DNA of 64,000 nucleotides from a virus (taxonomy: Duplodnaviria; Caudoviricetes), in the IMG/VR virus record IMGVR_UViG_3300001598_000001, positions 32,001 to 96,000 of that record; one strand, written 5' to 3'. Below the pieces are notes generated by a model. It was given only the letters and a program-made list of their open reading frames with translations, had not been told where the DNA came from and did no database searches. The translations under genes and the position numbers were made by a program. Every line of letters starts with the position of its first letter. Position 1 is the first letter of the stretch. This document shows positions 4,408 to 56,289 of the stretch, piece by piece.

Positions 4408-5988
4408 TTAATTTAAACTTTGTAAAATTAATTCTATTGGTTCATAATTTTCTGTTGAACCTATCAAAGTAATAATACCATTTTCAATATGATAATTATA
4501 ATTTGTTGTGGATAAAACATCAAAAGTTTGAATTGTTCTATTATTAATTAAAACCAAATCTTCTCCAATAATTTCAGACAATACTTCTTTTTCTCCACCA
4601 CTACAATGATCAATAATATTATAATAAGCTATAATACTATTATTACTGTATACTAATAAAATATCATCACTATGCATAAAACATGAATTAATAGCATAAT
4701 TATGTAAATCAAATGGATATATATCTTTTTGTTGATATACACCTGTAATTATATCAATTGTAGCAAACAATGTAGTAAAGACATTATATCCACTTTGATA
4801 ATGTTTATGTTGATTGGTTAAATAAATTAATCCATTTTCAATTTTATATGGATGTTCATTAACGAATCCATCTTCTAAAAATCTATTTGGAATTTTAAGT
4901 TGATCAAATATGTCGGTAGTAGTTAAATCGCGCATTGTGAAATCTTCTTGCATTAATTTAAAACTATCATATGCGTTTCCGTCCCAGTGACCTAAAATCA
5001 TTTCATGGGTATTAGTCATAAAAGGAATATTAGATACTGAACTAGTATTACAATTCTTTTCTTTTACAAAAACAAAGTGTTTTTCTGTATCTATTCTATC
5101 AATTTTATCATTCCAAATGTAATAGAACCCATATTTATCCTTCCAAATATCATAAACTATAACATTTGGATTTTGAATTACTGGAATGATTTTTAATTCA
5201 TCATTTTCTAAAACAAAATCATAATAACTATTACTATTTGATTGTATTTGAACCAAACCATTATAGATATTATAAATGTGTTCTTTGATTGAATAAATTT
5301 TTCCAGTAGTATTGTTTATCAAATATGATTGTCTAGTGTTATCAGAATAATAATCACATAAATCATATAAATCTATTCCATCATCATTCATTCCTAAACT
5401 ATGTCTTTGACTCATACCCATTGGTACAAATGACATAAATGTAAATTTAGTACCAACATAAAGTTTATCAATTTCAGAACTCAACTCCTCTTGAGTGATT
5501 TCAATTTGATCATCTGGATCAACTCCATTAACATCTCTAGAAATATTTGTAATAGTTTTAGTAAAAGTAATTTCTATTAATTGGTTGTTTTCAATTATTG
5601 GATCATCAGCAGTAATTTCTTCTGTTGATCCTACTAAAACATATCTTGGTAAAATTTCTTCTTCTGGAGTTTCTTCTTCGGATTCACTTTCATTACCCGA
5701 TTCTGGTTCAACTTCTGCACTTAGTTTTTTAATTCCAAGTTGTTTCATACCTGATATATTAGCAGTTAATCCTTCTAGGGTATCCAAGGTTTCGATTGAA
5801 GCATTAGATACTGTAGTTGTATTAGCACTAACATGGTCTTTTATTGTACTAATGGTATTGATAATTGTGGTGGTGTTGCTTGGTGTACAACATACACTTA
5901 TCATACTTAAACCTATTAAAGTACAAATAATTGAGTGTTGCAAAATTTTCTTTGCAATATTTGTGTTTGTATTATTTTTCTTATTCAT
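4408..5988 (-). CDS. Putative secreted or membrane-anchored (lipoprotein-like) protein
   Basis: 526 aa. Basic N-terminus, hydrophobic stretch ending in Cys (LIGLSMISVCC), Thr-rich and acidic linkers, beta-rich body. Confidence 0.6.
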   Translation of the reverse strand: MNKKNNTNTNIAKKILQHSIICTLIGLSMISVCCTPSNTTTIINTISTIKDHVSANTTTVSNASIETLDTLEGLTANISGMKQLGIKKLSAEVEPESGNESESEEETPEEEILPRYVLVGSTEEITADDPIIENNQLIEITFTKTITNISRDVNGVDPDDQIEITQEELSSEIDKLYVGTKFTFMSFVPMGMSQRHSLGMNDDGIDLYDLCDYYSDNTRQSYLINNTTGKIYSIKEHIYNIYNGLVQIQSNSNSYYDFVLENDELKIIPVIQNPNVIVYDIWKDKYGFYYIWNDKIDRIDTEKHFVFVKEKNCNTSSVSNIPFMTNTHEMILGHWDGNAYDSFKLMQEDFTMRDLTTTDIFDQLKIPNRFLEDGFVNEHPYKIENGLIYLTNQHKHYQSGYNVFTTLFATIDIITGVYQQKDIYPFDLHNYAINSCFMHSDDILLVYSNNSIIAYYNIIDHCSGGEKEVLSEIIGEDLVLINNRTIQTFDVLSTTNYNYHIENGIITLIGSTENYEPIELILQSLN

Positions 5989-27961: not shown

Positions 27962-29497
27962 ATGATAACCGTTGATAAAGAAGACATAGTAGAATATTAT
28001 ATTAATCAAAACCATTCAGTCCAACAAACAGCTGAACATTTTAATATTAATTGTAAAACTTTTTTTGGATGGCTACACAGATTAAATATTCACAAAGACA
28101 AAACATTAAGTCAACAAAATGCACAAAAAGCATTAAAAGATAAGCACATTATGGAAAATAATCATCCAACTAAAGATGAATTATATCAATATTATATTGT
28201 TCAAAATCATTCTGAAACAGAATGTTGTCAATATTTTTCAGTATCACGTTCGTCTATTCAACGTAGGATTAAAAAGTATCAATTAAATAAAGATACACAA
28301 CAAATTCAAAAATGTACCCAACATACTGTTTTAAATAAATATGGTTATAATTTTGTTTTACAAGATCCACAAATACAAAAAATAAATAAAGCACGACTAC
28401 AAGAAAAATACGGTGTACAAAATATTGCACAGCAATATATTCAACATTTAGATATATGGAATGATAAAGATAAATTTGTAAAATTTTTAAAACAGCAAAA
28501 TGTAAAAATGACAGCAGTAAGTTTGGGTAGATATTTTAATGCTCATATAAGTACTTGTTTGAGAAAAATCCATAGTTTGGGGTTAGAAAATCTTATTGAT
28601 ATTAAGCCTGCTACATCGCAATATGAACAAGAAATTATTGATTTATTACATAATGAGTTTAATATTGATAATATTATTCAAAATGATAGAACAGTATTAA
28701 ATGGGAAAGAAATTGATATTTATTTACCAGATTATAATTTTGGAATTGAATTTAATGGTGAATATTGGCATTCAGAAATTGGTCACCCTCATTATGCTGA
28801 AAGAAATGGTAGATCCACTTATCACCAACAAAAATCTTTAGAGGCAGAACAAAAGAATGTTTTTTTATTTCATATTTTTGAACATGAATGGTGTGAACCA
28901 TTTACAACTGTAAATCCTAAATTTACAAATAGTCGTAAAAAAATTATTAGTCGTTTAAGATCAATATTACATTATAATGAAAAGACTATAGGTGCTCGTC
29001 AATGTGTAATAAAAGAATTAAGTTATGATGAAAAAACACAATTTCTAGATTGTAATCATTTTCAAGGTAATGATATATCTAGTAATTATTATTTAGGATT
29101 ATTTTATCAAAATGAGTTGGTTAGTTGTATGACTTTTGGTAAATCTAAATACAAAAAATATACCTGGGAACTAAGTAGATTTTGTAATAAAGAAAATTAT
29201 CAAATTCTTGGTGGTGCCTCAAAGTTACTTAAATATTTTGTAGATAATAAAATGTGTAAAAATGATATTTTAGTTTCTTACAGTGATATTACTAAAACTA
29301 GTGGAAATTTATATAAAACATTGGGTTTTACTAATACTCAAATTAATGATCCTAATTATTGGTGGGTTAATTTTAATACTGGTGATGTAAGAACTAGATA
29401 TCAAGAACAAGCTGCTGGTGAAGTAGCGCGTATGCATAATAAAGGATATTATAGAATCTGTGATTGTGGTACAAAGACATGGATTTTGAAAAAATAA
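27962..29497 (+). CDS. Free-standing homing endonuclease (Hef/Vsr-like PD-(D/E)XK) with N-terminal HTH repeats
   Basis: EIDIYLPDYNFGIEFNGEYWHS, FHIFEHEW, WELSRFC, GGASKL, DCG motifs; two N-terminal YYI..NHS HTH repeats; no TGA. Confidence 0.8.
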   Translation: MITVDKEDIVEYYINQNHSVQQTAEHFNINCKTFFGWLHRLNIHKDKTLSQQNAQKALKDKHIMENNHPTKDELYQYYIVQNHSETECCQYFSVSRSSIQRRIKKYQLNKDTQQIQKCTQHTVLNKYGYNFVLQDPQIQKINKARLQEKYGVQNIAQQYIQHLDIWNDKDKFVKFLKQQNVKMTAVSLGRYFNAHISTCLRKIHSLGLENLIDIKPATSQYEQEIIDLLHNEFNIDNIIQNDRTVLNGKEIDIYLPDYNFGIEFNGEYWHSEIGHPHYAERNGRSTYHQQKSLEAEQKNVFLFHIFEHEWCEPFTTVNPKFTNSRKKIISRLRSILHYNEKTIGARQCVIKELSYDEKTQFLDCNHFQGNDISSNYYLGLFYQNELVSCMTFGKSKYKKYTWELSRFCNKENYQILGGASKLLKYFVDNKMCKNDILVSYSDITKTSGNLYKTLGFTNTQINDPNYWWVNFNTGDVRTRYQEQAAGEVARMHNKGYYRICDCGTKTWILKK

Positions 29498-38183: not shown

Positions 38184-39191
38184 ATGGGACGTAGTACAGT
38201 ATATAATGATAATTTGACTCAAAATTGGTCAAATGTATCACAACAAAATAAAAGATTAGTTAAAGACTTTTTACAATATTGTAAATCCAATGATAAAAGT
38301 CCACAAACTCTTCATCAATATGAAGAGTGACTTAAAGTTTTCTTTTGTTGAAATTTTCAAGAAAACGAAGATAAATTTTTTATTGATTTAAAAAAGAGAG
38401 ATTTTGTTTATTATTTTGGATGATGTAGAGAGTTAGGAATGAGTGCAAATCGTATTGCCGCACTTAAGTCTGTTCTTAGTAGTTTATCATCTGAAATTGA
38501 ATTATTATATGAAGATTTATATCCTAATTTTCATAATCAACTTAGAGGATTAGAACCTGTACATATTACTACTGTTCGTGAAAAAACAGTTTTATCAACA
38601 GAAGAAATTAATAACATTCTACAAACATTGGTAGAAAAGAAAGAATATCAATTAGCTTGTTATTTAGCATTGTTGTGTGCTTCTGGTGCTCGAAAAGCAG
38701 AAATGCTACAAATGCGACCTGATTTTTTCACTGAAAGCCACGAAGTTTTCGATGGATATATGTATTGCACTCCACCTATTAGATCTAAAGGAAGGGGAAA
38801 ACAAGGAAAAATTATTAAAAAATATGTGATTAAAGAATTTTTTAAACCTTTTTTTGATTTATGAATGGAAGAACGTGAAAAAGAAAATATTACATTGTCG
38901 AATTTATTTGTAACTAAAAAAGATGGTCAATACGTGGAAGCTACCACATCAACAGCTAATAGTTTTGCTGCAAAAATTTCGAAAATGTTTAATATAGATT
39001 ATTATAACCACTCTGGTAGACATTATTTTTGTACATTATTAAAATCAATGAATTTACCAGATGATGTTATAGTACAAATTTTTAGTTGAAGTGACGGATC
39101 CATGGTTAAAATTTATGATGATACGCCAGTCGAAGAAAAATTAAATAAATTTTTTATGCAATTTAAAAAGGAAGAAATAAAAGGAGAATAG
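38184..39191 (+). CDS. Tyrosine recombinase (YomM-like), TGA=Trp
   Basis: 335 aa. SGARKAE, RSKG, HSGRH, IFS[W=TGA]SDGSMVKIY give an R-K-H-R-W-Y catalytic set. Confidence 0.85.
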
Positions 39192-40220: not shown

Positions 40221-40294
40221 GTTGATTTAATTTAATGGAAGAATAGTTGTTCAGTAAACAATGCACATTGGTTCGATTCCAATAATCAACGCCA
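40221..40294 (+). tRNA. Atypical tRNA, anticodon AGT (Thr by anticodon; identity uncertain)
   Basis: GTTGATT/AATCAAC acceptor, ATTGG-TTCGATT-CCAAT T arm, GTTGT-TCAGTAA-ACAAT anticodon arm, G-CCA end; C at position 33. Confidence 0.65.
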
Positions 40295-40547: not shown

Positions 40548-40642
40548 AGGGGCTTAGTGTAGTGGTAGCACACGAGACTTCAAATCTCGGGTAACAGCGT
40601 CCAAAGCTGCGGGTGTGGGTTCGATTCCTACAGCCCCTGCCA
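40548..40642 (+). tRNA. Opal-decoding tRNA-Trp(UCA) with a 25-nt variable region
   Basis: AGGGGCT/AGCCCCT-G-CCA acceptor (Trp-like), GTGT/GCAC D stem, CGAGA-CTTCAAA-TCTCG anticodon arm, GTGGG-TTCGATT-CCTAC T arm. Confidence 0.9.
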
Positions 40643-40650
40643 TATATTTA

Positions 40651-41183
40651 AACAGTATAAATTTAAATATATTAGATCTCGGTGTAAACCAGACAATCTG
40701 GCCGAGAGTTACAAAGTAATGGATAGGTTTAGAGGATACCCTAAACTGAAAACCAAGATTATTATAGTGATATAATATGAGAAGATACCAACTAGTATCA
40801 ACAACGGGTAACGTGCTAATATAATATCGGAGATAAAACCTAAATCCAACGCTCTCGTAATAACTCGTCCATATGCTCATACCAGGTGGTGCTGATGGTC
40901 AACATATGGAAAAACCAACAAGAGAGAATGCCTTGATGTCTAGTAAGTAGACTATAAGTTGGGATAAGGACAAGTAGCTGAATGGCGGTTCGTATGAAAA
41001 AGTACATATTTCAAAATCTGAAAGTCGGTGAAAGTTAGAGGTACCCAGTCCTCTCGATGGTAAAAAGGGCAAGAAGCTTTATGGTCGCAACTTAAAGCTC
41101 AGACTTGTTCTATTCGTAGTTTAACAATCAGATATTATAAGTGGTAAGACGAAGGTCTCTAATACATTTAAATTTATACTGTT
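40651..41183 (+). ncRNA. Large structured ncRNA, ROOL-like
   Basis: ~530 nt closed by a 26-bp near-perfect terminal stem; many internal hairpins; no credible ORF; tRNA-adjacent. Segments resemble ROOL from memory only. Confidence 0.65.
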
Positions 41184-41202: not shown

Positions 41203-41272
41203 GGTTTTGGCAGGATTCAGTTAAGACATCTGCAGTAAATCTTAATGGTTGGTTCAACTCCAACAAAAACCA
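41203..41272 (+). tRNA. D-armless tRNA-like element
   Basis: GGTTTT/AAAACC acceptor, perfect GTTGG-TTCAACT-CCAAC T arm, TTAAGA/TCTTAA stem with 13-nt loop; no D stem, no encoded CCA. Confidence 0.45.
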
Positions 41273-41339
41273 CTTATTCGGGTTCGGGATATGTCCATAA
41301 GCATATCAGCTCGTTAGTCCTAAGGAGAAAAACAAAGTT

Positions 41340-41679: not shown

Positions 41680-42891
41680 ATGAGTAAAAAAATTAAATTA
41701 AATGAAATGAAAAATGTGGATCGTAAATTAGAAACTCCACTATTTGGAAGAAATGCTTATGTGCAATTATCTCCAATATCACAATTTCTATATGATATTA
41801 CAATTGATTGTGTAGATTATGATTATGCTAATAATTATTTTAAGCAACGTCAGGTTCCAATCAATAATAGTGGTTGTAGTGTAGTTTGTACCGATAATTT
41901 TACTGGCAGAGATTTAGATTGGTTTTACAATTGAGATTGTGAATTTTGGGTTCACACACCAGCATGTGATGGACGTTATGCCTCAAATGGTACAGCTAGT
42001 TCTGTTCCTGGTCTTACTAAACAAATGGTAGAAAGCGGGCAATATTTATCTGCTTACAATATTTTACCATTTTTTATGGTAGATGGTATTAATGAATATG
42101 GTGTTTATTGTAGTACTAATGTTGTTCCTGAAGAAAAAGGTAATACTACTATAACTATACCTACTGAATCAAAGACAGCAGAAATTTCTATGAATATGGT
42201 AGTACGTTATGTTTTAGATCATTATAAAACCGCTCAAGAAGCTGTTGAAGATTTACAAAAACATATAGCAATTTATAAAACCACTGGTTTAAAAAAAGTT
42301 GGATATGATGCTCATTATGAAATTCGTGATACACAACATAAATATGTAGTAGAAATTATTGATAATCAAGTTCAATATCAAGAACAACCTTATATTACTA
42401 ATTTTCATTGTATAGGTGTTACTACTAATAGTGATGGAAAAGTTTACACTCCAGCCACTCAAGATGATAGTCACAATGCATATATTACTAATCATATTAC
42501 CAAGCACGGTAGTGGACTAGAAAGATGAAATGTAATAGTTGATAATTACAATACAGCGGATAATAAAGAAAACATGGTTGCTTTAATGAAAGATTCTCTT
42601 AATTATAAAAAAGCATATAGTACTTTTGAAGAAGTATCTGACCCATTTTGGAATACAGAATTTGTAGGGGTTAACTCTCATGGAGATTTATGTGTAGATA
42701 GTCCAGAGGCTGATTATGATTATATTAAACAATACACTGGACAGTTGTTTATTAATAGAAATAGAAATCAAGATAAAATTGGTACTTGACATACCACTCA
42801 CACTTGTATTTATGATCACATAGAACATAAAACATATTTTTATGATTCTAGCGAAGATGGTGTTGAACATATAATTACTTGAGATTTTTAA
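41680..42891 (+). CDS. Ntn-fold linear amide C-N hydrolase (choloylglycine hydrolase / acid ceramidase-like), TGA=Trp
   Basis: 403 aa. G|CS nucleophile site, GRDLDW, DGINEYG, AHY.I.D, TNF, GLER. Confidence 0.75.
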
Positions 42892-42907
42892 AATTTTCCA
42901 TTATAAT
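42879..42907 (+). promoter_or_regulatory. Sigma70-type promoter for the second RNA cluster
   Basis: TTGAGA-17 nt-TATAAT with TCCAT before the -10. Confidence 0.55.
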
Positions 42908-43168
42908 AATATTAGATAAAAATAGGTGAAAACATACATAACTTAACAATAGACCCTATAATAGTATAAGATGGTAAGAGGCTTGTACTGATAGTTATGA
43001 CGAAAGTATAATTCAAGATGGAGATTAGATCCTCGTTCAATTATATCACATCGGTGAAAAGGGTTTCCCTATATTAGGTAGACAAACACCGTAAGAAACA
43101 TCTATTATTTGGTGAACTGTTGAAGGTTTTAAATGTAAGTTAGGTTGACGTGCTTACAGCCAAATCAT

Positions 43169-43241
43169 GGGGATGCGTAGATCGTCTGTTATATTCATGT
43201 ATAACAAAAACAAGAGGGGCAGCTCCTCTTCATCTCCACCA
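43169..43241 (+). ncRNA. tmRNA tRNA-like-domain mimic lacking the mRNA domain
   Basis: GGGGATG/CATCTCC-ACCA acceptor with G3.U70, no D stem, one 7-bp hairpin, T arm AGAGG-GGCAGCT-CCTCT. Confidence 0.6.
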
Positions 43242-43440
43242 AAAAGCTGACCGACAAAAGTCATTAAACTGCTCCATACATACTTTCATGCGATGGTTAA
43301 TTGAGAAGAGAAAGCGAAGTTAGAAGATTAAAATATCATTCTTCAAATTAGGTACTTTGGATAATTAAAAGCCTATATTTCATTATATGTAATAAAAATA
43401 GGATTTTATTACAATCATTAATCAACAGGAGGATTTAACA

Positions 43441-43776
43441 ATGAAATATTATAGTGAAAAAGTAAAAAAACTTTTTGATTCTGAAAAAGAATTAGAAACA
43501 GCAGAAAAAGAATTTGATGCTAAAGAATTAGAAGAAAAGAAAAAATTAGAAGCTAAAAAAGCTAGAGCAACTGAAGTAGAAGATGCCTATAAACATTCTA
43601 TTGAAGTTAGAAAAGAAGCGCAAAAATTAATTGATGAAGCTGATAATGCTTATTATGATTTAAGAGATGCTTTTGTTAAAGATTATGGTTCTTTCCATAT
43701 GACATACAAAGATTCTAGCGAAAAACCAGTTACATTATCTTCTTTTTTTGATATTTTTGATAAATTTTGGTTTTAA
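43441..43776 (+). CDS. Coiled-coil phage protein
   Basis: 111 aa, AGGAGG RBS. Confidence 0.75.
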   Translation: MKYYSEKVKKLFDSEKELETAEKEFDAKELEEKKKLEAKKARATEVEDAYKHSIEVRKEAQKLIDEADNAYYDLRDAFVKDYGSFHMTYKDSSEKPVTLSSFFDIFDKFWF

Positions 43777-43780
43777 TTAT

Positions 43781-44332
43781 TAAAGTGGTGTTCCGCTACC
43801 ATTAAAGGCGAATTATGATGATGAATTAAAATTGGTGAAAACAACCAACCATTTCTCAGGTAGAGATAGACTGAATCGTTAGCGAAGGATAGGTCGAGAA
43901 CAAGTGTGATAGCATGCATACCAGAGGACCGAATGAGGGTGCATGTGCTGGCTAGAGGCAGAGAGCCCTGAAGAATATGCCGATGAGGAACTTGCAACTA
44001 ACTTTGATATTTTATGTGGTTGAGAACAAGTTTAGGTAGATGCTGAATTCCACGTTATAGCGAGATTACAAAATCACGTGCGAACCCATAAAGCAGCCAA
44101 AAATATCTCAATTCTTCTGAATGATCGTTGACGGTCTATAATAGATAGGACTTATAGAAGAGAGATTCAGCCAAGAGGTGTTTGTGAGAAGGAAAACTCA
44201 CCCTATCAAATAAACCTCTCAAATTGGAGCAAAGTAGTGACCACTTACGGCATAGCGGAATGGACTGCTGTATAAAAGGTCGGTGTTATTCCTACCCGCT
44301 TTCATGGCAATGCAAAAAGGAATTACGTTTTA
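43781..44332 (+). ncRNA. Second large structured ncRNA, family unassigned
   Basis: ~550-nt GC-enriched interval without a credible ORF; nested helices such as CTGAATC/GATTCAG and GATATTTT..TGGTTG/CAGCCA-AAAATATC; ends 6 nt before tRNA-fMet. Confidence 0.6.
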
Positions 44333-44338
44333 ATATAT

Positions 44339-44412
44339 CGCAGGGTAGAGTAGTGGTTACTCAGTGGGCCCATAACCCACTCAGGCGAGTTCAATTCTCA
44401 CCCCTGCAACCA
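44339..44412 (+). tRNA. Initiator tRNA-fMet(CAT)
   Basis: C1:A72 mismatch, GGG/CCC anticodon stem, CAT anticodon, ACCA end. Confidence 0.85.
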
Positions 44413-44553
44413 ATTATTATTATTTTTCCAAAGGAAAGATAATGAATATTAATTTTTTGTGGAAAAATAATAATTATTTAAATAATTATTAATATAATAT
44501 AAGTCGCTTAAATAAAAGCGGCTTTTTATTTAGTAAAATAGGGGGTATAGACC

Positions 44554-47500
44554 ATGAAAGAAAAAATAATTGAATATACAAACCTTAGTGATATTGATTT
44601 TAGTAAAAATAGCACGTTATACAAAGATATTAGTAGTATGGATAAGAAAGTCCGTGCTTTTGACGCTAGATCCAATGAAATTAATGATAAAATAAGTAAA
44701 GAAATATTCAGAGACGCTTTAGTAAGTGGTGGTAACAATAGTATTTTAGATTCTTTACATGGTATAGAAAACCTATGTCGTAGTAACGGAATTCAAACTA
44801 AAGTAACAGTAACAAACGATGGAATTAGTTTAGTGGCTTATGATGAAAATAATCAAGTTGTACCAGTTATCTCTTATATGGCTGGTTCAGATGGATTAGT
44901 AATTCGTGATAATTTAGTAGTATTAGATTCTTTGTATTATAGTCAAAATAATGCCACTGGTAAATCTCAATTAATTAATGGAACAGTTGCTTATTTAAAT
45001 GAGTTTAATAAAATTTTAAAAACTAATTGAAGTAAGTTAAAATCACAAAAACAAGATTTTAGTTCTATTTTACAGTTTGCTCGTAATGAAGCTAATAAAC
45101 AAATTCCTATAACTAATCAAGGAACTTATAAATTTGTTGGTAATTCTGGAAAAGAGATTTTATCAAACTTAAAAAAACAAAAAAATGTTTTTAAAAACAA
45201 GAGTAAGAGTTTCGATGTTGATCCTAGTGCGTTTTGAGAAAATATTATTTATGACACTGTTAGAAAATCGGTAGCTCCTGGGGTTACTTCACAAGATCAA
45301 TCTTGAGCACAAAAAGAACGTGAAATTCGTCCAATAATAGAAAAACTTGCTAAAGAAGCTTCTAAACTACCTTCTGTAAAACAAGCAACTCGATTATTTA
45401 GTGAAGATTATGATATTAGAAAATTAATTACTAAAGACAGTAATCTAAAAGCTAAGATTATGGAAGCGGTTAGATTTTTTTCTGAAATTACTTGAAATCA
45501 ATCTAATATGTCTGAAGCTGATGCCCATAAAGGTAAAGTGGCAATATTTGGCGATAGTAGAACTGGTATTTCTGGTCAAGAATCAATTACTAAAAAAGAT
45601 CAAGGTAGTTCATATTTAAAACGAACTAAAGCTGGTCAACACAATACTTATGCACATGTAGCTGGTGGTATTTTAACTTCTAAAACAGGTTTTAAAGGTA
45701 ATTCTGCAGATTATGATTTATTTACTATTGCTCCTGTTGAATCTGAAGCAATTTCTGAAGGTATGAATAATATGTTTAAAGCAGCCGTAGAACACGAAAA
45801 GGTTGCTCGTGAAAACATTAAAAAATACGGAGAAAATATCAAACACAAGGCAGAATTAATTAAAATATTAAAAAATAAACTTGATACTATTAAAAAAGAT
45901 GACTATAGTGATTTAGAACATGAAATGATTTCTCAAATTATGGAAATTTATGAAAATTATCGCACTGTTCATGATACAGGTAATAATCAAGTGCAATTTG
46001 ATACTCCTGAAGAATTTAGAGATTATTTAGTTAATGAAGCTAATAAACGTTTTGCTCAAAAAGTAAAACAACGCAAAACTTATAATAAAGAAAGAAAGAA
46101 ATCTTTAACTAGTGAAATTGCTGATATTAAAGTTGCAAACACAGACGCTAAATATAAACAAGCAGCAGCTAAAGCTTATCATAAAATTAATGAAGAATCT
46201 GTAGAAGATTTTGCTTTAGACAAATTGCGCAAACAATATCATATGGATTTTAATCCTAATAAGCCTCATTCTGATGTGTTGGATGATCAAATCATTATAG
46301 TTAAAGAAGCATTAGCTGAAATACAAACACAATTAATGCAACAACAAGTTTTTACAGAAAAAGATATTAAAAAAGCTATGAAAGCTGGAAATTATCAAAT
46401 TTCTGAAGAAGCTGTGTTGGCTAAAATAAACGAACAACGAAAACAGCAAGGTTTAGATCCTGTTTCTATGAAAGACCTAAAAGTTGGACTTAATAAAGAA
46501 AAAGGTGTATTTACAGCACAATATACTGAAGATTTTATTATCAAAGAAGGAACTAAATTATTAAATTATTTAGGTAGAGAACGTTGATCTTCTTCAAGTT
46601 TACCAGCAGATGTAATGAAATCTGTCTTAAAAGCACAAGCACGATTAATTGCTTCTGTTAAATCTGGTACTAATGATGTTAATGACACTAAATATCAAAA
46701 AGAATTTGCAAAAGCCAATTCTATGTATTTTGATTCCAATGATAATCTTAAAGTTGCAGGCGTTAGTGGAATTAGTTCATCTATTAAAGGTGAAAAATTT
46801 TATGGTTGAAGCCAAGGTGTTATGTCCTATGCTTTAGGTGAATTGTTTAATCAAAGTTATAAAAAGAATATTTCTAATGGTCAAGAAAAAGCAGTAGCTA
46901 AGTCTGAAGCTATTAATAAAGTTCGTGAAAAATGAAATGAATCTGTAGATAAACTAGTCGCACAAGGACAATTAACTACAGAACAAGGTGAAAAATTTAA
47001 ACAATTAGTTACAGGTGTTAATGAAAAAACTGGAAAAGTAAATTTTAATACTGATTCAAAAATTACAGATTTTGTTAATAAAAATTTAGTACATTACGTC
47101 AAGTTAATTAATACTGTTTACAAAGATAATACAGGCCGTAAACTTGGTACTTATAAAAATAATAAAAATGAAGGAGAAGTTTTTGAACTTGATCCTTATG
47201 CTTTATATGATATAGGTATTAATCCGTCTATAGTTGCCGAGGGAGATTGGGATCCACATAAGAGAGTTTCAATGGCTCATAATGAAAGACAAATTAAAGA
47301 AAGAGAAAATGAACGTTTAGCAGCTATGGGTAAAGACGTCACTGTTGAAAGAGCTATGCTTGATGTTCAATATGAACAAGCTATTGAAAAAAATACTAAA
47401 TATCAAAATAAATTAAAAGCTGTTAGAGACGCAGTTACTAATAATTTTAATGCTGATAGAATTGATGTTGAAGACAAAGATAAAGATATCACAGCTATTG

Positions 47501-50500
47501 TAAATTTAGCTGATTTAAATAATGCTAAAAATGTTGAAAGAGATGTTATTGACCCTGCTACATTTAATTCTAAAGATTTTACTCAAACTAAAGAGGGTAT
47601 TATTTGGACAGCACAACAAAATAAATATCAAGAATTATTAAATGAGTTTATTGATCCAAATAAAATTAAAGAAATTGAAGAATTGCGTAAAGCTAAAAAA
47701 TATAAAAAAGCAAAAGAATTAGAGGTACTAGAACAACAAAGAGTACAAAAAGCCGTATTAGATAAATATAAAGTTGAAAGTGCCAAAGATATTAAAATTG
47801 CTGGAAAAACTAATATTCAAGGATATTTAAATAAGAGTGTATCTGGATTAGATTATGATGCTATGACAGGAGAGCTTTTAGATCTTGCTGGATACGATAT
47901 AGAACAAGATGAAAATGGCAATTATCGTATTAACAACACAGCAGACTATGAATATAATCGTAGTATTCTGAGATCTTATGAAAACGCTCTTAAAGAAGAT
48001 ATTTTAGAAGATAGACAAGCAAAATTTGGAACTGGAATTTATAAAGCTGGTCTTGAACGTGAGCGAGCTTACGTAGAGAAAAAAGGTTCGGAATTTGAAA
48101 AATTTGCTAAAAAAGAAAGAACACATAGTAAATTTTTAAAAACTAAAGATTTAAATAATGCTGAAAAAGATACATTATATACTAGTAAGAGTGATATTAA
48201 TGAAATGATTTCTCAACGAGAGAATGAAACTGATGAGGAATATAATAAACTTATTAAAGGTATATACAAAGATACTTTAGGTGTTAATAATGCTCCAAGA
48301 AGAAAACAAAATGAAACTCTTCAAGATTATAATACTCGTATTAAAGATAGTGTATTAAAAGCTATTATAGAAGACGATAAAGATCTTATCATGGATGTCA
48401 CTAGAGATCCTAATAATACAGCTATGGCTGGTATGAAAGTTAAAATTAAACATTTAACTGGTATAGGCGAAGGTGTAGTTGGAGGAGATCCAGCTTTAAT
48501 TAAATTTCTTAAAGGTGACTATGATGGTGATAGATTAGGTTTAGCTTTAGATGCTGATGGTAATATTATTGGTGCTGTTCGTATGACTCAAAAACAAGTT
48601 GACGAACATATGCTAAAAGAAAGAATATTAGCGGAAGAAGATGCTGAAGTATTACGTTTTATTACCAATCAAAAAGGTGGAAGTACTTTACCGTCTGCCA
48701 GCACAGCTATTAAAATAGACAAAAATGGTAAAAAATATATTGAAAATACTACGTTAGATGTAGCTGATTTAACAGGACTTGAACGTAATGCTTCAACACA
48801 ATTATTATCATTTGAAGCAAAACAAAATAAGGATGACTATGTTGGACTATATTCTAATTTTAGAACTAGTGCAACTACTGGATTAGAAGAAAAATTTGGA
48901 AAAGGTTTAGGTAAAACAGTAAATACTGCTAAAACTGGATTAGCTATTGAAGCCTTATCTTTATTATTGGCTCGTCCAGAACAAGCTGCAATTTCTTCTA
49001 AACACTTGAAAAATTTAGCAGCCACTGATCCTGAATTATTTAAACAGTGATTTGAATGAGAAGAAAATGAAAATGGTGAACTTATTCATAAAAAAGATGA
49101 AAATGGCAATGTTATTTTCAAACAAGCTTATTTAGATCGTTATGAAAAATTAGCTAAAGATTTAAAGAATTCTGATAATTGAAACAGTGAAACTCAAAGA
49201 GAAGCATTATTACAAGAAATGGTTAATCTTGGAATGATTGAAGGTAGTGGTAAATTTACTGACGATCAATTCTTTGGTGAATTTTGAAAACTTGCTAATA
49301 CTGAATTAGGACGTAAAGGTTTAACTGGTATTAACAAACGTTATAATAAATTATACGGAAAAGATGGTAAATTAAAAGCTGGTGCTGATTTAAGTATCAT
49401 GGATCTTGATTTTATCAGAGATATGTTAAATTGGTTATCAGTTCAAAGTGCAGAACTTGCTCCTAATGAAACATTGGGACATATAGTAACTACTGGTAGA
49501 CAATCTGCTCTTGATAAACAACGTGTTTATGATCAAAAAAATTTAATTGAAAAACCAACTGAAAAACAAATCAAAGAACACAAAGAATCCTTGGGTAAAG
49601 ATGTCGAAGTAGAAATTCTTAAATCTATTAATTTATTAATTGATACTATTAGACAGTCTAGTGGAGTCATTGCTCAAGCAGCAGGTATTAGTGGTGGTAA
49701 TGGAAATCGTTTTGCTTATAATATTTCTAATATTACAGATAATAATAAGAGAAATGTTTTAGCTGCTGCATCCAGAGCTGGTGGCTATACTAATAAAATT
49801 ACACCTACTGAGATTGCTCGAGTGAATGCTCGTAGTGGGGATAAAATTTATAGTAATTGAGATGAAATAATTAAAATTTTAGAAGATCCTACTGTAGATG
49901 TTAAAGAGAAACAACGTATTATTGGTCAAATGTCCGATGCTGACAAAAATTGGGCATTAGCCACTCGTCGTGGTAAATTAGTTCACCAATTTAGTGAAGA
50001 TCAACGTTTAATTGAAAAATATAATTTAACTAACGTAGATCCAAATAAATGAAATGAAACATTAATTAATCAATTTAAAAACACCAATGATATCAATGAA
50101 AGAAAAGAAATTTCTCAATTTTTAGGTATTTTAAACAAAAAATCTGACGAATTAAATCATGAAAATGGTGGTTTTGTAAAACAATATAAAGAATTTAGTG
50201 AATTAAGTAAAATTTTAGATATCAAAGATACAGATTGATTATCTAAAATTATAGCATCAGCTCAAATTTTAAATAAAATGTCTTCCAATGAAACAGTTAT
50301 TGGTAAAGAAGTTGGTATGCATAATTATATTAATGTTAATGGTGAAGATACTGTTGAACATGGATATATTGACCAAATTACCAGAGCGGCTGTTAAGAAG
50401 GCCCAAACAGATATTAATGGTGAAAAATATGAAGTAGATGCTAATCGTTATACAATGGAAGATTTAAAAACTACTTCTGGAACAGGGGTTGATCTTTCAT

Positions 50501-53500
50501 TAAAAGACGCAGAACAAGTTCTTCGTTATATTAATTATGGTAGTCAGGCTAATAAACAGTTTAAAGAGGAATTAGGTGGACTTGCAAAAGTTCCTACCAC
50601 AGCCAAAGAGTTAAAAGATTTTTTAGCCAATGAAAAAGATTTAAATAAATATGCTGCAATTCGTCAATTTGTTGATGATATTGAAGAAAATGGTGGGGTA
50701 CTTACTGACGATCAAGTTCAAATGTTAGCAGATAAAAATGCTATTTTTGAAGGACGTATTAAAAAAGTAGATACTCAAACAAATGAAGCTGCATCGTATC
50801 GTATTGGTGCAAGTCAAGCTAAAGAACTTATTCAAAGATCACAAAACGGAGAAGATATTAGTGGATTTTTAGGTAATTTTGTTGAAGAAAGACAATTTTA
50901 TCAAGCTGGTAATTCTGTTTCTGAACTTAAAGAAGAAATTACTTTATTAAAACAAAAATATGAATTACAGTTAAAAATTAATAAAGCTTTATTAGAAGGA
51001 AAAGATAATGAAGCTGCTGTTCTACAAGAACAAGAAAAAGAAGTTGATCTAAAACTTAAAGAAGCTCAGAAATCAACTAATAAAATTGCTGACACCACAG
51101 AAAGAAAAAAATATGTTCGCGATACTCGTAAGGAGATTGAAGAACAATTACAAAAAGAAAATGATCAAGCTTTAAAGTTGTTACAAGCTCAAAAGAATGA
51201 TAAACAAAAAGCTGGTCCTAATAAAAATATATTAGCTCGTTTGAGCACGGGATTTGATGAGGGAATTACTCAACGTTTGAATCGTGCATTTAGTGGTTAT
51301 GCTATTTTTGCTAAACTTACTCAAGGGATCCAAACCGTTAAAAAGAATGTTATTGATTTAGATAAAGTTTTGACTAATCTTCGTATTGTCACTCAACAAA
51401 ATGAAGAAAGTACTCGAAACTTGATTAAGGGGTATTCAGAACTTGCAGGAGAATTAGGTGTGTCAACAACAGCTGTTGCTACAGCTGGACAAGAATGGCT
51501 AAGACAAGGCTATGATATAGCAGAAACCAACAAATTAATTGAAGCTTCAACTAAATTAAGTATTTTAGGTATGATGTCTTCTGCTGATGCTGTTAAATCA
51601 TTAACCAGTGCAATGAAAGGATTTAAAATGGAATCCTCAGAAGCAATAGATATAGTAGATAAATTAACCAAATTAGATGTTAATGCTGCTACTACTGCTG
51701 GTGAAATTGCTAGTGCATTATCAGAATTTGCAAACGCTGCAAGTTTAGGTGGCTTAAATATTGATCAAGCTTCAGCAATGGCAACTACTATCATGGATGT
51801 TACTCAAAATAGTGGTTCTCAAGCTGGTAATGCTCTGAAAATGATGTTATCAAGATTTGGTAATGTTAAATCTGGTGCCTATTCAACTCTTAATATTTCT
51901 GGCGATGCAGATACGGAAAGTGCTAGTCTAAACGATGTAGAAAAGGTTTTAAAGAATATTGGTGTATCATTAAGATCATCAAATTTAGAATTCCGTTCAT
52001 TTAGCGAAGTTTTAGATGAAATTAGTGAAAAATGGGTTAATTTAGATAATGTTAGTAAGAATGCAATTGCAACTGCTTTTGCTGGAACAAGACAACGTGA
52101 ATCTTTCCTTGTCTTGATGGAAAACTATGATAAATATCAACAATTACTAAAAGTATCTGAAAGTGCCGCTGGAACTTCTGAAGAAAAAATTAAATCTTAT
52201 CAAGAATCTATTGCTGCTTTACAAGAAGAAATAAAAGCCGCATGGGAAAATTTAGCTAATAATAAATCTATTTCTGACTTCTTAAAACTTATACTTAGTA
52301 CTACAACCCAACTTATTAAATGATTACCGTGAATAGTTAATATATTAAAACCATTATTAGCTACTAAAACAATTAGTATCGCTTCCAACTTTTTTGGTAA
52401 TGGGTTAAAAAATGGATTTTCTGGTTTATTTAAAAATGTTACTGCTACACAAAAGAATACAACAGCAATTGAAAAATTAACTACAACTTTAGAAAATACT
52501 TCGAACACTTCTGGAAACGGCGTATATAGTCGTAATAATATTGCAGTTGGTGCTGCGGGTATTACATCTACAGGTGCATTAACTTATGGTAATAAATCTG
52601 TCGGTCTTGGTGATGATGGTAAGTATTATTATTTAAAGAACGATGGTTCTTTATCTAAAAGATCAGTTAGTGCTGCGGGACAAAAAGAAATTCAACAAAC
52701 CGCAGAAAATAATAAAAAGCTTAAAAAAGCTGGTAGTTGAAGAAATAAAACGGGTGGTGAAAAAGTTGCTGCTGGTGCAGCTGCTGGATTATTAGCTGGG
52801 TTAACAGCTGATACCGATACCAAAGATATATATGGTACAGGAGACACAACCGTTAATTCTACATTACAAACTATAGATAAAGTTGCTACTGGTGCGGTAA
52901 CTGGTATAGCTACAGCAATTGGCGGACCTATTGTTGGGGGTATTGCTAATATATTAATGGAAGTTGCTACAAAATATGCAATGCCATGATTAGAAAAAAT
53001 TTTCTTCAAACGCGATTTTGAATTAAAACTTTTAAATAAAAGTATTAATGAAGCAAAAGAAAATATTGAAAAAATTAATAATATTCAAAACTCTTTAAAT
53101 ACTTTAGTAGAATTATCAAATAAAAACATTTTAATTGGTGAAGATTATACCAAAGCTGTTGATGAATTCAATAAAATATCTGCAGCACTGGTTGATGACC
53201 CTAAAACACTTAGTGTTTGAAATGAAATTTTACATAATACAGATGATTTATTAGATGGTGTAGATAATGAAACGCTTTCTTTGTCTACTTTACGAGAAGC
53301 TTATTTAACTGGTAGTGCTCAAGAGAGAGCTGAAATAGCTACTGCTTTACGTGCATCATCAGAATTAGTTGAAGCTAGAGAATTCCAACGAACTTATTCG
53401 GCAAAAATGTATGAAGTTAATGAAACTATTAATAGTGCTCGTCAATATGATGCTGAATTTTTAGAGAAAAACGGAGTTTTAGATCAATATAAACAATATG

Positions 53501-56289
53501 CTAAAAATAAATATGCACAAATGAGTGATGCCGAAATTATTAAACAATTTGGCAGTGTTGCAAGCGAATTAAAGTATGGAATAAATTGACTTGGTGGTTG
53601 GACAAATTTTAACACTAATAAAATGACTTCTTTAGACGTTGTTGCTCAGGAAGTTAGAAAATATTTAGAAGATAATGTTGATAAAACTTTCCAAGACAAT
53701 TTTAACTCTGATGTTCATTTACGCGAAGAATTATCTACTTTATTAAATGAAAGTGTTCTTGTTGATTATTGAAACCAAACTATTGAAAGTTTAACTAAAC
53801 AATTGGAACAAGGTGAAAATGTTAGTGAAGAACTACGCAAAGCTAATAACGAACTAAACAAAGTTCAAAATGCTATTAATTTAAAACAAAACTATACAGA
53901 TGAAATTAATTATAAATATGCTCAAGCAGCATTATCTGCTTCTGGTTTAGAAAATTTAACTCAAGCACAATTAAATAATATGGGTTATAAAGATAAACTT
54001 AATAAAATTGCAGAAAATATGGAGTCTTATGGTTATTCTGTTTATAATTCTGATGGTGTGTTATCAGCTCAAGCTCAAACATATATTGAAAATGCTATTA
54101 GAAGTAATAGTAAAATATATGGATCTGTTAGTGGTCAAGTCTATTCATTAGCTGAAGTTTTAAACAAAGATAATGAAAATTTATTTAGAAATTATCAAGA
54201 AATTCTATGGCAGTGATCAGAAGCTTTGGGTGTAAGTGTTGATGAATTAGATGATTTAAAAGATACTTTAGGAGATATTACCTTAGCTCAAGTTTTAAAA
54301 ACTCCAGACGAAACACGTCAAAATATTTCTGAACTAACTTCTATGTTCACATCTATTTCTTCTTCTACTGGTATTACCGCTGAAAATATAGAGAACATTA
54401 TTACAAAGTTCCCACAATTATTACCTTATGCAAGTAGTGTTGGTGATTTAATTGGGGGGTTAACCAAAGGCATAGAACAGTATAGTAAATTATATGCATA
54501 TCAGATCACTAATCAAATTTTAAATAGTGAATCTGTACTTTCAGATATTCAAAAAAATATGAGAGAGGGTACTGTAGATGTTGATATAAGTGAAGATGAT
54601 CAAAAACAATTATATGAAACATTGTTATCTAACTATTCATTTGGTAATGGAAGTGTTTTAAATGATATGCTTGGTTTAATATGGGGTAATGCTGAAGAAA
54701 ACGGTATAAGTGAGGAAAATCAAGAAAAATTACGAACTATTGTAGAATCTTATTTACCAGATATAGAAAATACGCTTGAGCGAGATTCTATTAAGCAACA
54801 AATAGATTATCAACAAAAATTATTTGATCAACAAATTAATAATTTACAAGAACAAAAAGAAATGTTAGATAATATAAATCATCAACGTGAGTATGAAAAT
54901 AAATTAATCGAAGCTAAACTCAAATTAGAAAATTCTCAAAAAGAAAAGAAAAGAGTTTGAAGATCTGGAGTTGGTTGGACTTATGAAGCTGATCAAAACA
55001 GTATTTTAGAAGCCCAAAAACAATTAGAAGATGTTGAAAATGAAAAGAACGTCTCTAAAATTGATCAAGAAATTCAATTATTGAATTCACAAAAAGAGTT
55101 ATTAGCTAATATTGCTAGTAGTGAAGAATTTGAAAATATGCGAGATTCGTGAAAAGGTTGGTCTGAACAAATGAAGCTTTATAATGAAGATCAAGAAACC
55201 ATAATCACTAATTTATCAACTTTATATAGTTCAATTAGCAAAATTTCTACTAAGGATATAGCTGAAGACATAGCTGATGCTGGAGTAAATAATGCTGATG
55301 AAAAATTAAATACATTAGATACTTTATATAATACAGCTCAATCTTATATAACTGGCGAAAATAAAAATGCTCCAACTACAGTAACTGCTTCCCAAGAATA
55401 TGCAGATTGAGAAAATAATCGAAATAATGCTCTAACAGCTTATCAAACAAAAGCCAATGAGTATAAGAACGTTATTACTCAAGATTGACAAACCAAACAC
55501 TCAGATCATGCAGCCATTATGAAAGCTTCTCAGCTTCATAATCAACAAGATACTATCATGATTGATGGAAAAGCCTATACTGTTGGCAATCAACCATTAA
55601 GTGACACAGATCCTTACTATCAATGAGTACAAGATGACCTTCGCGCAGGCGAAAAAGGCCCTCAAGACAGTAATGGTAAGGGTAAAGGTAAGTATGTTAA
55701 AGTATTTGATCCAAAAACAAGTACAGAGACAAACGAAGATGGAATATTAAATTATTCTCGAAGTAAAAGTAAAACATATGGAGAGGTTAATGGTTCTGAT
55801 GATAAAAAAGATTATAGTAGTTTAGTGTTATCAGATGTGGCAGCAAGTTTGAGTGATGGTACTATTTTAAGTAGTGAAAGTGGAACCGTAGAATATGTTA
55901 TGGTTATGAACCATCAACTTAGACAATTAGATCCGAAGGCCAAAGGAACTTTAGATTTAAATAGTCATGGCGTTTTATTGAATGAATTAGGAACAGAAGC
56001 AATTGTAACACCTCAAGGTACAATTACAGCTCTTCCTTCTCACTCAGGTATTGTGCCAGCTGATATTACTCGTAATTTATGAGAATTAGGAGAAATTTCT
56101 CCTACACTTACACATTTGCTTGATCATTTGAATAATCAAATGGTTCCTGGAAAGAGTGTATTTGGTAATGATGAATCATTTAATATTAATACTATTAATA
56201 TGACAGTTAATGCTGATAATAGTTTTGATGCTCAAAAATTTATTGAGAGTGTTAGACAACGCGCAGCTTTAACAAAACATAATCGTTAA
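44554..56289 (+). CDS. Giant tape-measure protein with N-terminal RNA-polymerase-like and PD-(D/E)XK nuclease-like domains (TGA=Trp)
   Basis: All track fragments share one frame: 3911 aa with ~28 TGA. TP901-type TMP core at ~51340-52260 (EWLRQGY, GNALKMMLSRF). GDYDGD at 48514; DLKT at 50461. Confidence 0.85.

Follow-up and report, generated by a model that had tools for sequence, protein, structure and literature searches.

Bacteria rely mainly on trans-translation for the rescue of ribosomes and the tagging of proteins. Among phages, a tmRNA that consists of the tRNA-like domain (TLD) alone is known from the mycobacteriophage DS6A, which is listed with a "TLD only" tmRNA (Hudson, Lau, Williams; PMC4131195). 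Where PMC4131195 and PMC11915505 refer to Mao et al. (2009), a DS6A-like TLD-only molecule is described as a strong inhibitor of tmRNA in Escherichia coli that perhaps acts by titrating SmpB. The 2025 tmRNA database paper (PMC11915505) repeats the DS6A case and adds forms that lack a coding sequence (CDS-less) in the plastids of the Mallomonadaceae. The part of PMC3968760 that deals with the TLD states that it is charged only with alanine, that SmpB binds the TLD elbow, that interplay between the D-loop and the T-loop is required for SmpB binding, and that stalled ribosomes can accommodate a TLD fragment along with SmpB and EF-Tu (after Gutmann 2003, Bessho 2007, and Neubauer 2012). In the literature, DS6A provides the only phage RNA of the TLD-only type on record, and both ARAGORN and the Rfam thresholds miss such genes. 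The DS6A RNA itself was located at approximately 28478–28560 of JN698994 (tmRNA Website tmID 11587), where it is unannotated in GenBank; its score against the Rfam tmRNA model (RF00023) is 43.2 bits, which is under the cut-off.

The DNA analyzed here (the window, 64,000 nt) comprises bases 32001–96000 of a complete phage genome of 131,489 bp with direct terminal repeats (IMG/VR record) and a GC content of about 29%. It is highly probable that positions 43169–43241 of the window represent the gene of a tag-less phage mini-tmRNA that belongs to a tmRNA subtype with a GGCAGCU T loop and that would act against the host tmRNA by the decoy steps proposed below.

The mini-tmRNA Gene Is Located in an Island of RNA Genes

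TGA is a sense codon in the late genes of the phage, and code 4 opens a 3911-aa ORF at 44554–56289. Under the same code, the gene upstream of the mini-tmRNA encodes a 403-aa Ntn-hydrolase-like protein (P0001, 41680–42891). The mini-tmRNA sits inside a 549-nt gene-free stretch (42892–43440) belonging to an RNA-gene-rich island, and the following features were identified around it:

38439–39089: integrase-like gene, about 4 kb upstream of the mini-tmRNA
40221–40291, plus strand: tRNA (Rfam tRNA match with 54.7 bits, missed by ARAGORN)
40548–40642, plus strand: tRNA with a UCA anticodon and a long variable arm (labeled SeC by ARAGORN)
40654–41177: ROOL RNA, directly preceded by a tRNA
41203–41275, plus strand: tRNA-like element of 73 nt directly after the ROOL RNA (ends GGTTTTG / CAAAACC, T arm GTTGG-TTCAACT-CCAAC)
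43441–43776, plus strand: gene for a charged protein of 111 aa, downstream of the mini-tmRNA
44339–44412: tRNA-Met, within the RNA-gene island

The phage also encodes a true tRNA-Ala(GGC). No SmpB gene was found in the phage genome, so that any SmpB partner of the mini-tmRNA must be that of the host. The anticodon loop of the tRNA at 40221–40291 reads TCAGTAA by eye, with C instead of U at position 33, and the molecule would thus be a non-canonical tRNA. The UCA-anticodon tRNA has a counterpart at 4578–4673 of a related contig (L244), suggesting that the suppressor tRNA is a lineage trait of these SPbeta-like recoded phages. The 73-nt tRNA-like element was called neither by the tRNA model nor by ARAGORN; with this element, the ROOL RNA would be bracketed by a tRNA on one side and a tRNA-like element on the other.

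The 111-aa protein has no PHROG family match but is conserved in other large phages with 38–45% identity (L244:17449–17802 and L025:523–837), and its homologues are located beside tRNA genes in each case, including tRNA-Ala(UGC). A second gene-free stretch of about 560 nt (43777–44338, plus strand) lies directly upstream of tRNA-Met and is comparatively rich in GC, with a peak of 56% near position 43916. This stretch has no Rfam match, shares a 98-nt block with L244:7543–7640 (82% identical), and might be a further large structured RNA of the phage within the ROOL-containing island.

Structure of the 73-nt RNA

The mini-tmRNA can be divided into the following parts:

43169–43241, plus strand: whole mini-tmRNA (TLD-only) gene, 73 nt with the CCA encoded (based on the sequence, the Rfam tmRNA ends, and the covariance model R1 described below)
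43169–43175, plus strand: 5′ strand of the acceptor stem, GGGGATG, including G3 of the G3:U70 pair (7 out of 7 positions paired with 43231–43237)
43176–43186, plus strand: stemless D-loop analogue CGTAGATCGTC, 11 nt, with no D stem
43187–43206, plus strand: hairpin TGTTATA-TTCATG-TATAACA with a 7-bp stem and a 6-nt loop (from the fold)
43207–43211, plus strand: junction AAAAC, the counterpart of the tmRNA GGAC before the T arm, of which only the final AC is kept
43212–43230, plus strand: T arm AAGAGG-GGCAGCT-CCTCTT with a stem of 6 bp, not 5, and a 7-nt loop
43231–43241, plus strand: 3′ strand of the acceptor stem, CATCTCC (43231–43237), with U70, followed by A73 and CCA (ACCA, 43238–43241)

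The G3:U70 pair and A73 are alanine identity elements. The 11-nt single-stranded segment, which in RNA letters reads CGUAGAUCGUC, starts with CGUAGAU. The hairpin at 43187–43206 occupies the place of helix 2, the pseudoknots and the tag ORF of a full tmRNA. Between the D-loop analogue and the T arm there are only 25 nt, which leaves no room for a tag reading frame; this segment holds a single hairpin and neither a resume codon nor a stop nor a pseudoknot. Without a resume and a stop codon, the mini-tmRNA is unable to append a degradation tag. The stacked acceptor and T stems amount to 13 bp compared with the usual 12, and the UCGAC (5′) and GGAC (3′) motifs that flank helix 2 are lost: the mini-tmRNA reads CGUC and AAAC and keeps only the G and the final AC of the two motifs. 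An earlier reading made from the sequence only had described tmRNA-like ends, G3:U70, A73, the absence of a D stem, the GGCAGCT loop and one hairpin, and both the sequence and the fold agree with this description.

Evidence for a Real RNA Element

The element at 43169–43241 is real and not a chance pair of hairpins. Its fold energy is −23.6 kcal/mol (z = −3.6) and none out of 200 shuffles folds as well. An architectural filter (7-bp acceptor stem with G3:U70, ACCA, an adjoining T stem of 5–6 bp with a 7-nt loop, and a length of 50–150 nt) returned only two matches within the 131,489-bp genome, the mini-tmRNA and the true tRNA-Ala(GGC), and no match in 20 shuffled genomes. The GC content of the mini-tmRNA is 45% compared with the genome mean of 29%, which corresponds to the 97.8th percentile among 73-nt windows.

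Standard models recognize the element in part. RF00023 aligns exactly the ends 43169–43241 with 14.6 bits (E = 0.003 in 2.3 kb), a score that comes from the acceptor stem and the ACCA only. With 14.6 bits, the alignment is far under the gathering score of 47 bits. ARAGORN made no call at 43169–43241, and the Rfam tRNA model (RF00005) had no match at E values up to 10 within 42300–44600 except for tRNA-Met.

The Mini-tmRNA Is Related to a GGCAGCU Subtype of Full-Length tmRNAs

The first 14 nt of the mini-tmRNA are identical to the 5′ ends of two full-length tmRNAs (L345 and L319, with 94 and 107 bits against RF00023), which then read TCGAC. A single compensated pair is the sole difference between the mini-tmRNA and L345 within the T arm and the 3′ strand of the acceptor stem, and the D-loop sequence CGUAGAU is identical at the same positions in the full-length tmRNAs L345, L319, and L260. 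The 6-bp T stem with the GGCAGCU loop was found in eight full-length standard one-piece tmRNAs (L294, L273, L289, L304, L319, L345, L288, and L260; 89–136 bits against RF00023) with 5′ ends that read GGGG.UG-CGUAGAUUCGAC or a near variant. The full-length tmRNAs of this type (L345, L319, L260, and those of some Bacillota and Eremiobacterota MAGs) have the acceptor stem, the 6-bp T stem, the GGCAGCU loop and the ACCA in common with the mini-tmRNA. They are, however, 343–412 nt long and contain helix 2, pseudoknots, a tag ORF and the UCGAC and GGAC motifs, whereas the mini-tmRNA has 25 nt instead and has lost both motifs. Because its 5′-terminal 14 nt match L345 and its T arm and 3′ strand do so except for one compensated pair, the mini-tmRNA is, as judged by homology, made up of the two ends of a GGCAGCU tmRNA joined by a hairpin, with approximately 300 internal nucleotides replaced.

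The GGCAGCU-type T arm is rare among the GTDB species genomes, where it was found in ten species from Bacillota MAGs and the Eremiobacterota. The exact T arm and 3′-end pattern of the mini-tmRNA is absent from the GTDB species genomes and points to no host. Within viral contigs, a full-length GGCAGCU tmRNA (412 nt, 88.9 bits) is located at L260:11281–11692 in a 139-kb contig with 30% GC, and three tRNA genes are present elsewhere in the same 12-kb locus. Accordingly, both the full and the TLD-only versions of the subtype occur in phage contigs.

The GGCAGCU tmRNAs combine a 13-bp acceptor/T stack (canonical 12) with a D-loop GUAG in place of the usual GGAU. Compared by sequence, this combination looks like a co-varying elbow variant, of which no description was found in the tmRNA literature cited here. 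The related loop GGCAGUA is the regular T loop of the alpha-type permuted tmRNAs: 118 out of 121 pattern matches have a perfect T stem after GGAC, and out of 20 loci scanned, the 15 with this arrangement match Rfam RF01849 and/or RF04321. The earlier statement that GGCAG-type T loops occur in some tmRNAs is thus borne out, with GGCAGUA in permuted and GGCAGCU in standard tmRNAs.

A Conserved Subfamily of GGCAGCU Mini-tmRNAs

Searches were made with two patterns, one that combined the D-loop core, the T loop and the 3′ end and a second one that consisted of the T arm and the 3′ end only. These searches identified five other distinct minis of 76, 77, 88, 89, and 131 nt in unrelated viral or metagenome contigs with 46–61% GC. 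Beyond the second pattern, the five share a 5′ strand that is complementary to the 3′ strand with G3:U70, a hairpin, and the 6-bp T stem, and all of them (5/5) carry the motif R-G-Y-A-G-A-W-M-G directly after the 5′ acceptor strand. The hairpin has the same position in every member of the subfamily and varies in length and sequence. The AC of the junction is invariant; the other five members read UAUAC, GAAAC, UAAAC, UACAC, and GUAAC (N-A-H-A-C in general), and they too are without the full UCGAC and GGAC motifs.

A covariance model (R1) was built from the five other minis with the mini-tmRNA left out. R1 scored the mini-tmRNA with 59.7 bits (E = 7e-12 in the window), part of which is not independent since the search pattern had dictated the T loop and 3′ end of the five sequences. 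The next match in the window reached 12.2 bits, the mini-tmRNA is the only significant match across the whole phage genome, and canonical minis scored at most 24 bits. Independent of the search pattern are the 5′ half and the covariation. In an alignment of the six sequences, 78 out of 78 stem cells pair and 6 out of 13 pairs are changed on both sides, with such changes in both stems, compared with only 50–64% paired in slid controls (partner shifted by 1–3 columns). Acceptor pairs 5 and 6 covary, G3:U70 is invariant, and compensatory changes are present in four out of six pairs of the T stem, including the outermost one, which indicates that the sixth T-stem pair is real. Judged by this alignment, the GGCAGCU TLD-only minis constitute a small, structurally conserved subfamily in unrelated phages. 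Together with the homology to the tmRNA subtype, the conserved subfamily upholds the earlier claim of a tmRNA tRNA-like domain without a tag frame. One of the viral contigs with a subfamily mini-tmRNA (7 kb) also contains a group I intron (L258:5914–6130, 84 bits).

Comparison with Other TLD-Only RNAs and tRNA-Ala

When viral contigs were scanned for this acceptor stem, most matches were 76-nt tRNA-Ala genes. The same scan revealed many RNAs of 60–74 nt composed of a tmRNA 5′ end (..GG.UUUCGAC), one hairpin, GGAC, a T arm and CCA, suggesting that TLD-only mini-tmRNAs are common in phage contigs. One canonical mini (L098) passes the RF00023 threshold with 62 bits; a BLAST search of L098 against phage records found only the 3′ ends of Streptomyces phage tmRNAs.

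The mini-tmRNA in the window resembles the DS6A TLD-only RNA in that both are phage-encoded, approximately 70–85 nt long and sub-threshold in Rfam, with a 7-bp acceptor stem that includes G3:U70, a stemless D-loop analogue, a short remnant of helix 2 and a T arm, and with neither a tag ORF nor pseudoknots. The two differ in the details of these parts: DS6A has the canonical GGUCGAC and GCAC, a 5-bp T stem, a UUCGAUU loop and no encoded CCA, whereas the RNA described here has its own 11-nt D-loop, the junction AAAAC, a 6-bp T stem, a GGCAGCU loop and an encoded CCA. The RNA is a divergent new member of the TLD-only type known from DS6A and not a new kind. The CDS-less organellar tmRNAs of jakobid mitochondria and of Mallomonadaceae plastids (about 65 bp; PMC11915505) likewise consist of the tRNA-like domain only and are without a tag frame, but they are resident genes in organelles that keep SmpB, with a presumed role in the organelle's own rescue, whereas the gene in the window belongs to a virus without SmpB. 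The similarity to tRNA-Ala consists of G3:U70, A73, CCA and the stacked acceptor/T helix; unlike tRNA-Ala, the mini-tmRNA has neither a D stem nor an anticodon arm, its T loop is not that of a tRNA, and it has no Rfam tRNA match.

The Upstream RNA and Related Loci

Three features were identified directly upstream of the mini-tmRNA:

42879–42907, plus strand: promoter-like site TTGAGA-17-TATAAT, 11/12 (from a consensus scan only, not evidence of function)
42915–43165, plus strand: separate upstream non-coding RNA with no ORF under code 4 and no Rfam match
43079–43108, plus strand: weaker promoter-like site TAGACA-18-TATTAT, 10/12, about 60 nt upstream of the mini-tmRNA (from a consensus scan only)

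The upstream RNA ends in a hairpin 6 nt before the mini-tmRNA. Its last 52 nt (43111–43162) are 90% identical to L244:8684–8735, where a T-run follows and then no mini-tmRNA. The counterpart of the upstream RNA covers L244:8585–8735 and shares further blocks with it, for example, AACAATAGACCC. This comparison indicates that 42915–43165 forms a non-coding RNA in its own right, which is conserved and belongs to no Rfam family. The site at 42879–42907 is a candidate start of a transcript that covers both the upstream RNA and the mini-tmRNA, and co-transcription of the two is plausible from their arrangement.

L244, a related phage contig of 154 kb, encodes counterparts of the Ntn-hydrolase-like and 111-aa proteins as well as a UCA-anticodon tRNA of its own. 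A first search for relatives among the viral contigs by means of P0001 returned none; homologues of P0001 at up to 46% identity led to the loci L242, L244, and L245, and no mini-tmRNA was found in these loci within the 21 kb fetched. A BLAST search of the intergenic sequence 42790–43440 against 50,697 phage records gave no match, and neither did scans of the viral contigs for the exact patterns of the 5′ half of the candidate or of its T arm and 3′ end. A search of sequencing runs returned no RNA run and one DNA run (0.05 share of words), which has no bearing on expression.

Alternative Explanations

The position of the mini-tmRNA 6 nt past the terminal hairpin of a conserved upstream RNA is what would be expected if the tRNA-like fold mainly served to define the 3′ end of this RNA through RNase P cleavage at 43168/43169, analogous to mascRNA behind MALAT1 and to the tRNAs that flank large phage RNAs. 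The same hairpin precedes a T-run terminator and no mini in L244, and the ROOL RNA in the same phage is likewise directly preceded by a tRNA. A processing handle, however, needs the stacked acceptor/T helix only and not G3:U70, A73, CCA and the tmRNA-specific D- and T-loops, and the alanine elements and tmRNA-type loops are conserved across the subfamily in other genomic contexts. As the main function this is considered unlikely; a secondary function of this kind, with RNase P separating two co-transcribed RNAs, would be compatible with action as a decoy. The sequence-only reading had proposed a link to recoding, in which a tag-free rescue RNA would keep trans-translation away from ribosomes that pause at recoded UGA codons. 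TGA is indeed a sense codon (Trp) in the late genes of the phage, as in the 3911-aa ORF under code 4, and one of the phage tRNAs has a UCA anticodon. The targets of tmRNA are ribosomes whose mRNA channel is empty and not those with a codon in the A site, and pausing at a sense-recoded codon does not create a classical tmRNA substrate. For most of the mini-tmRNA loci examined, neither code 4 nor code 15 extends the longest frames, so that most of these loci look like standard-code phages, and 21 kb of the related L244, with its UCA-anticodon tRNA, contain no mini and a T-run at the homologous site. No support was found for the recoding link, which is judged to be quite improbable.

Phages often integrate into ssrA, an integrase-like gene is present at 38439–39089, and the T arm and 3′ end of the mini-tmRNA closely resemble a real tmRNA; its 3′ part might accordingly be a copy of the 3′ end of a host ssrA gene that serves as the attachment core (attP) for the phage integrase. 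An attachment core would need the 3′ segment only, but the element also has the complementary 5′ strand, the tmRNA-type D-loop and a closing hairpin, other phages contain the entire architecture with compensatory changes, and the exact 3′ end is found in no GTDB species genome, all of which makes an integration remnant very unlikely. An origin as a decayed tRNA-Ala could be suspected because L244 and L025 contain a tRNA-Ala(UGC) beside the homologue of the 111-aa protein; in L025 this tRNA-Ala has the same acceptor stem, although the L025 locus was picked by the acceptor pattern. There is no Rfam tRNA match at E values up to 10, the loops are those of the tmRNA subtype and not of tRNA-Ala, and the layout is conserved in unrelated phages with purifying selection on pairing. 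Given the tmRNA-specific loops, the lack of a match to the tRNA model, and the conservation in unrelated phages, the pseudogene explanation was rejected as extremely improbable. No intermediate forms linking the element to tRNA-Ala(UGC) were seen in close relatives. The chance that the element is an intrinsic terminator on the minus strand combined with fortuitous complementarity, or a small protein gene, is close to negligible. The T-arm hairpin is followed by GTTTTTGTT on the minus strand, and short ORFs overlap the element, among them one of 57 aa (43150–43323). Both flanking genes are nevertheless on the plus strand, and the other subfamily members are without a T-run at this position; the terminator was rejected because the pattern of hairpin and T-run exists on the minus strand only, where no gene precedes it. 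The full architecture is not produced in shuffles. The 57-aa ORF was considered and rejected as a small protein gene.

Proposed Function and Significance

The preferred explanation remains a tag-less mini-tmRNA that interferes with the tmRNA of the host. By the precedent of DS6A, its likely role is to draw SmpB, AlaRS and stalled ribosomes away from the host tmRNA. The mini-tmRNA would be transcribed together with, or just after, the upstream non-coding RNA; RNase P would cut its 5′ end and the 3′ end would be trimmed to the encoded CCA. Host AlaRS would then charge the RNA with alanine by way of G3:U70 and A73, and the mini-tmRNA, either free or bound to host SmpB and EF-Tu, would compete with host tmRNA for SmpB, EF-Tu and stalled ribosomes. 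In infected cells, SsrA tagging and trans-translation would be lowered overall, in line with what is reported for the DS6A TLD-only RNA in E. coli. The earlier suggestion of an SmpB decoy is plausible in this respect and agrees with the published DS6A case.

Binding of SmpB cannot be assumed for the subfamily, given the loss of the UCGAC and GGAC motifs, the need for D-loop/T-loop interplay and the 13-bp stack. There is a small chance that the GGCAGCU subfamily is no longer an SmpB ligand and instead represents an alanine-charged, minihelix-like RNA with another use. Such an RNA could be a processing and stability module of the adjacent non-coding RNA, or it could serve a non-ribosomal enzyme, or AlaRS itself, as an Ala-RNA donor or decoy. 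If so, it would represent a class of tmRNA-derived phage tRNA mimics with a new function.

With respect to the TLD-only type as a whole, the mini-tmRNA indicates that the unusual GGCAGCU subtype of tmRNA is a further source of such genes and that they can be located in the non-coding RNA islands of large low-GC phages, here together with a ROOL RNA, a UCA-anticodon tRNA and two unknown RNAs. If SsrA tagging is blocked by the mini-tmRNA, it would be a compact natural inhibitor of trans-translation of only 73 nt and a useful probe of what SmpB and AlaRS recognize in the TLD.
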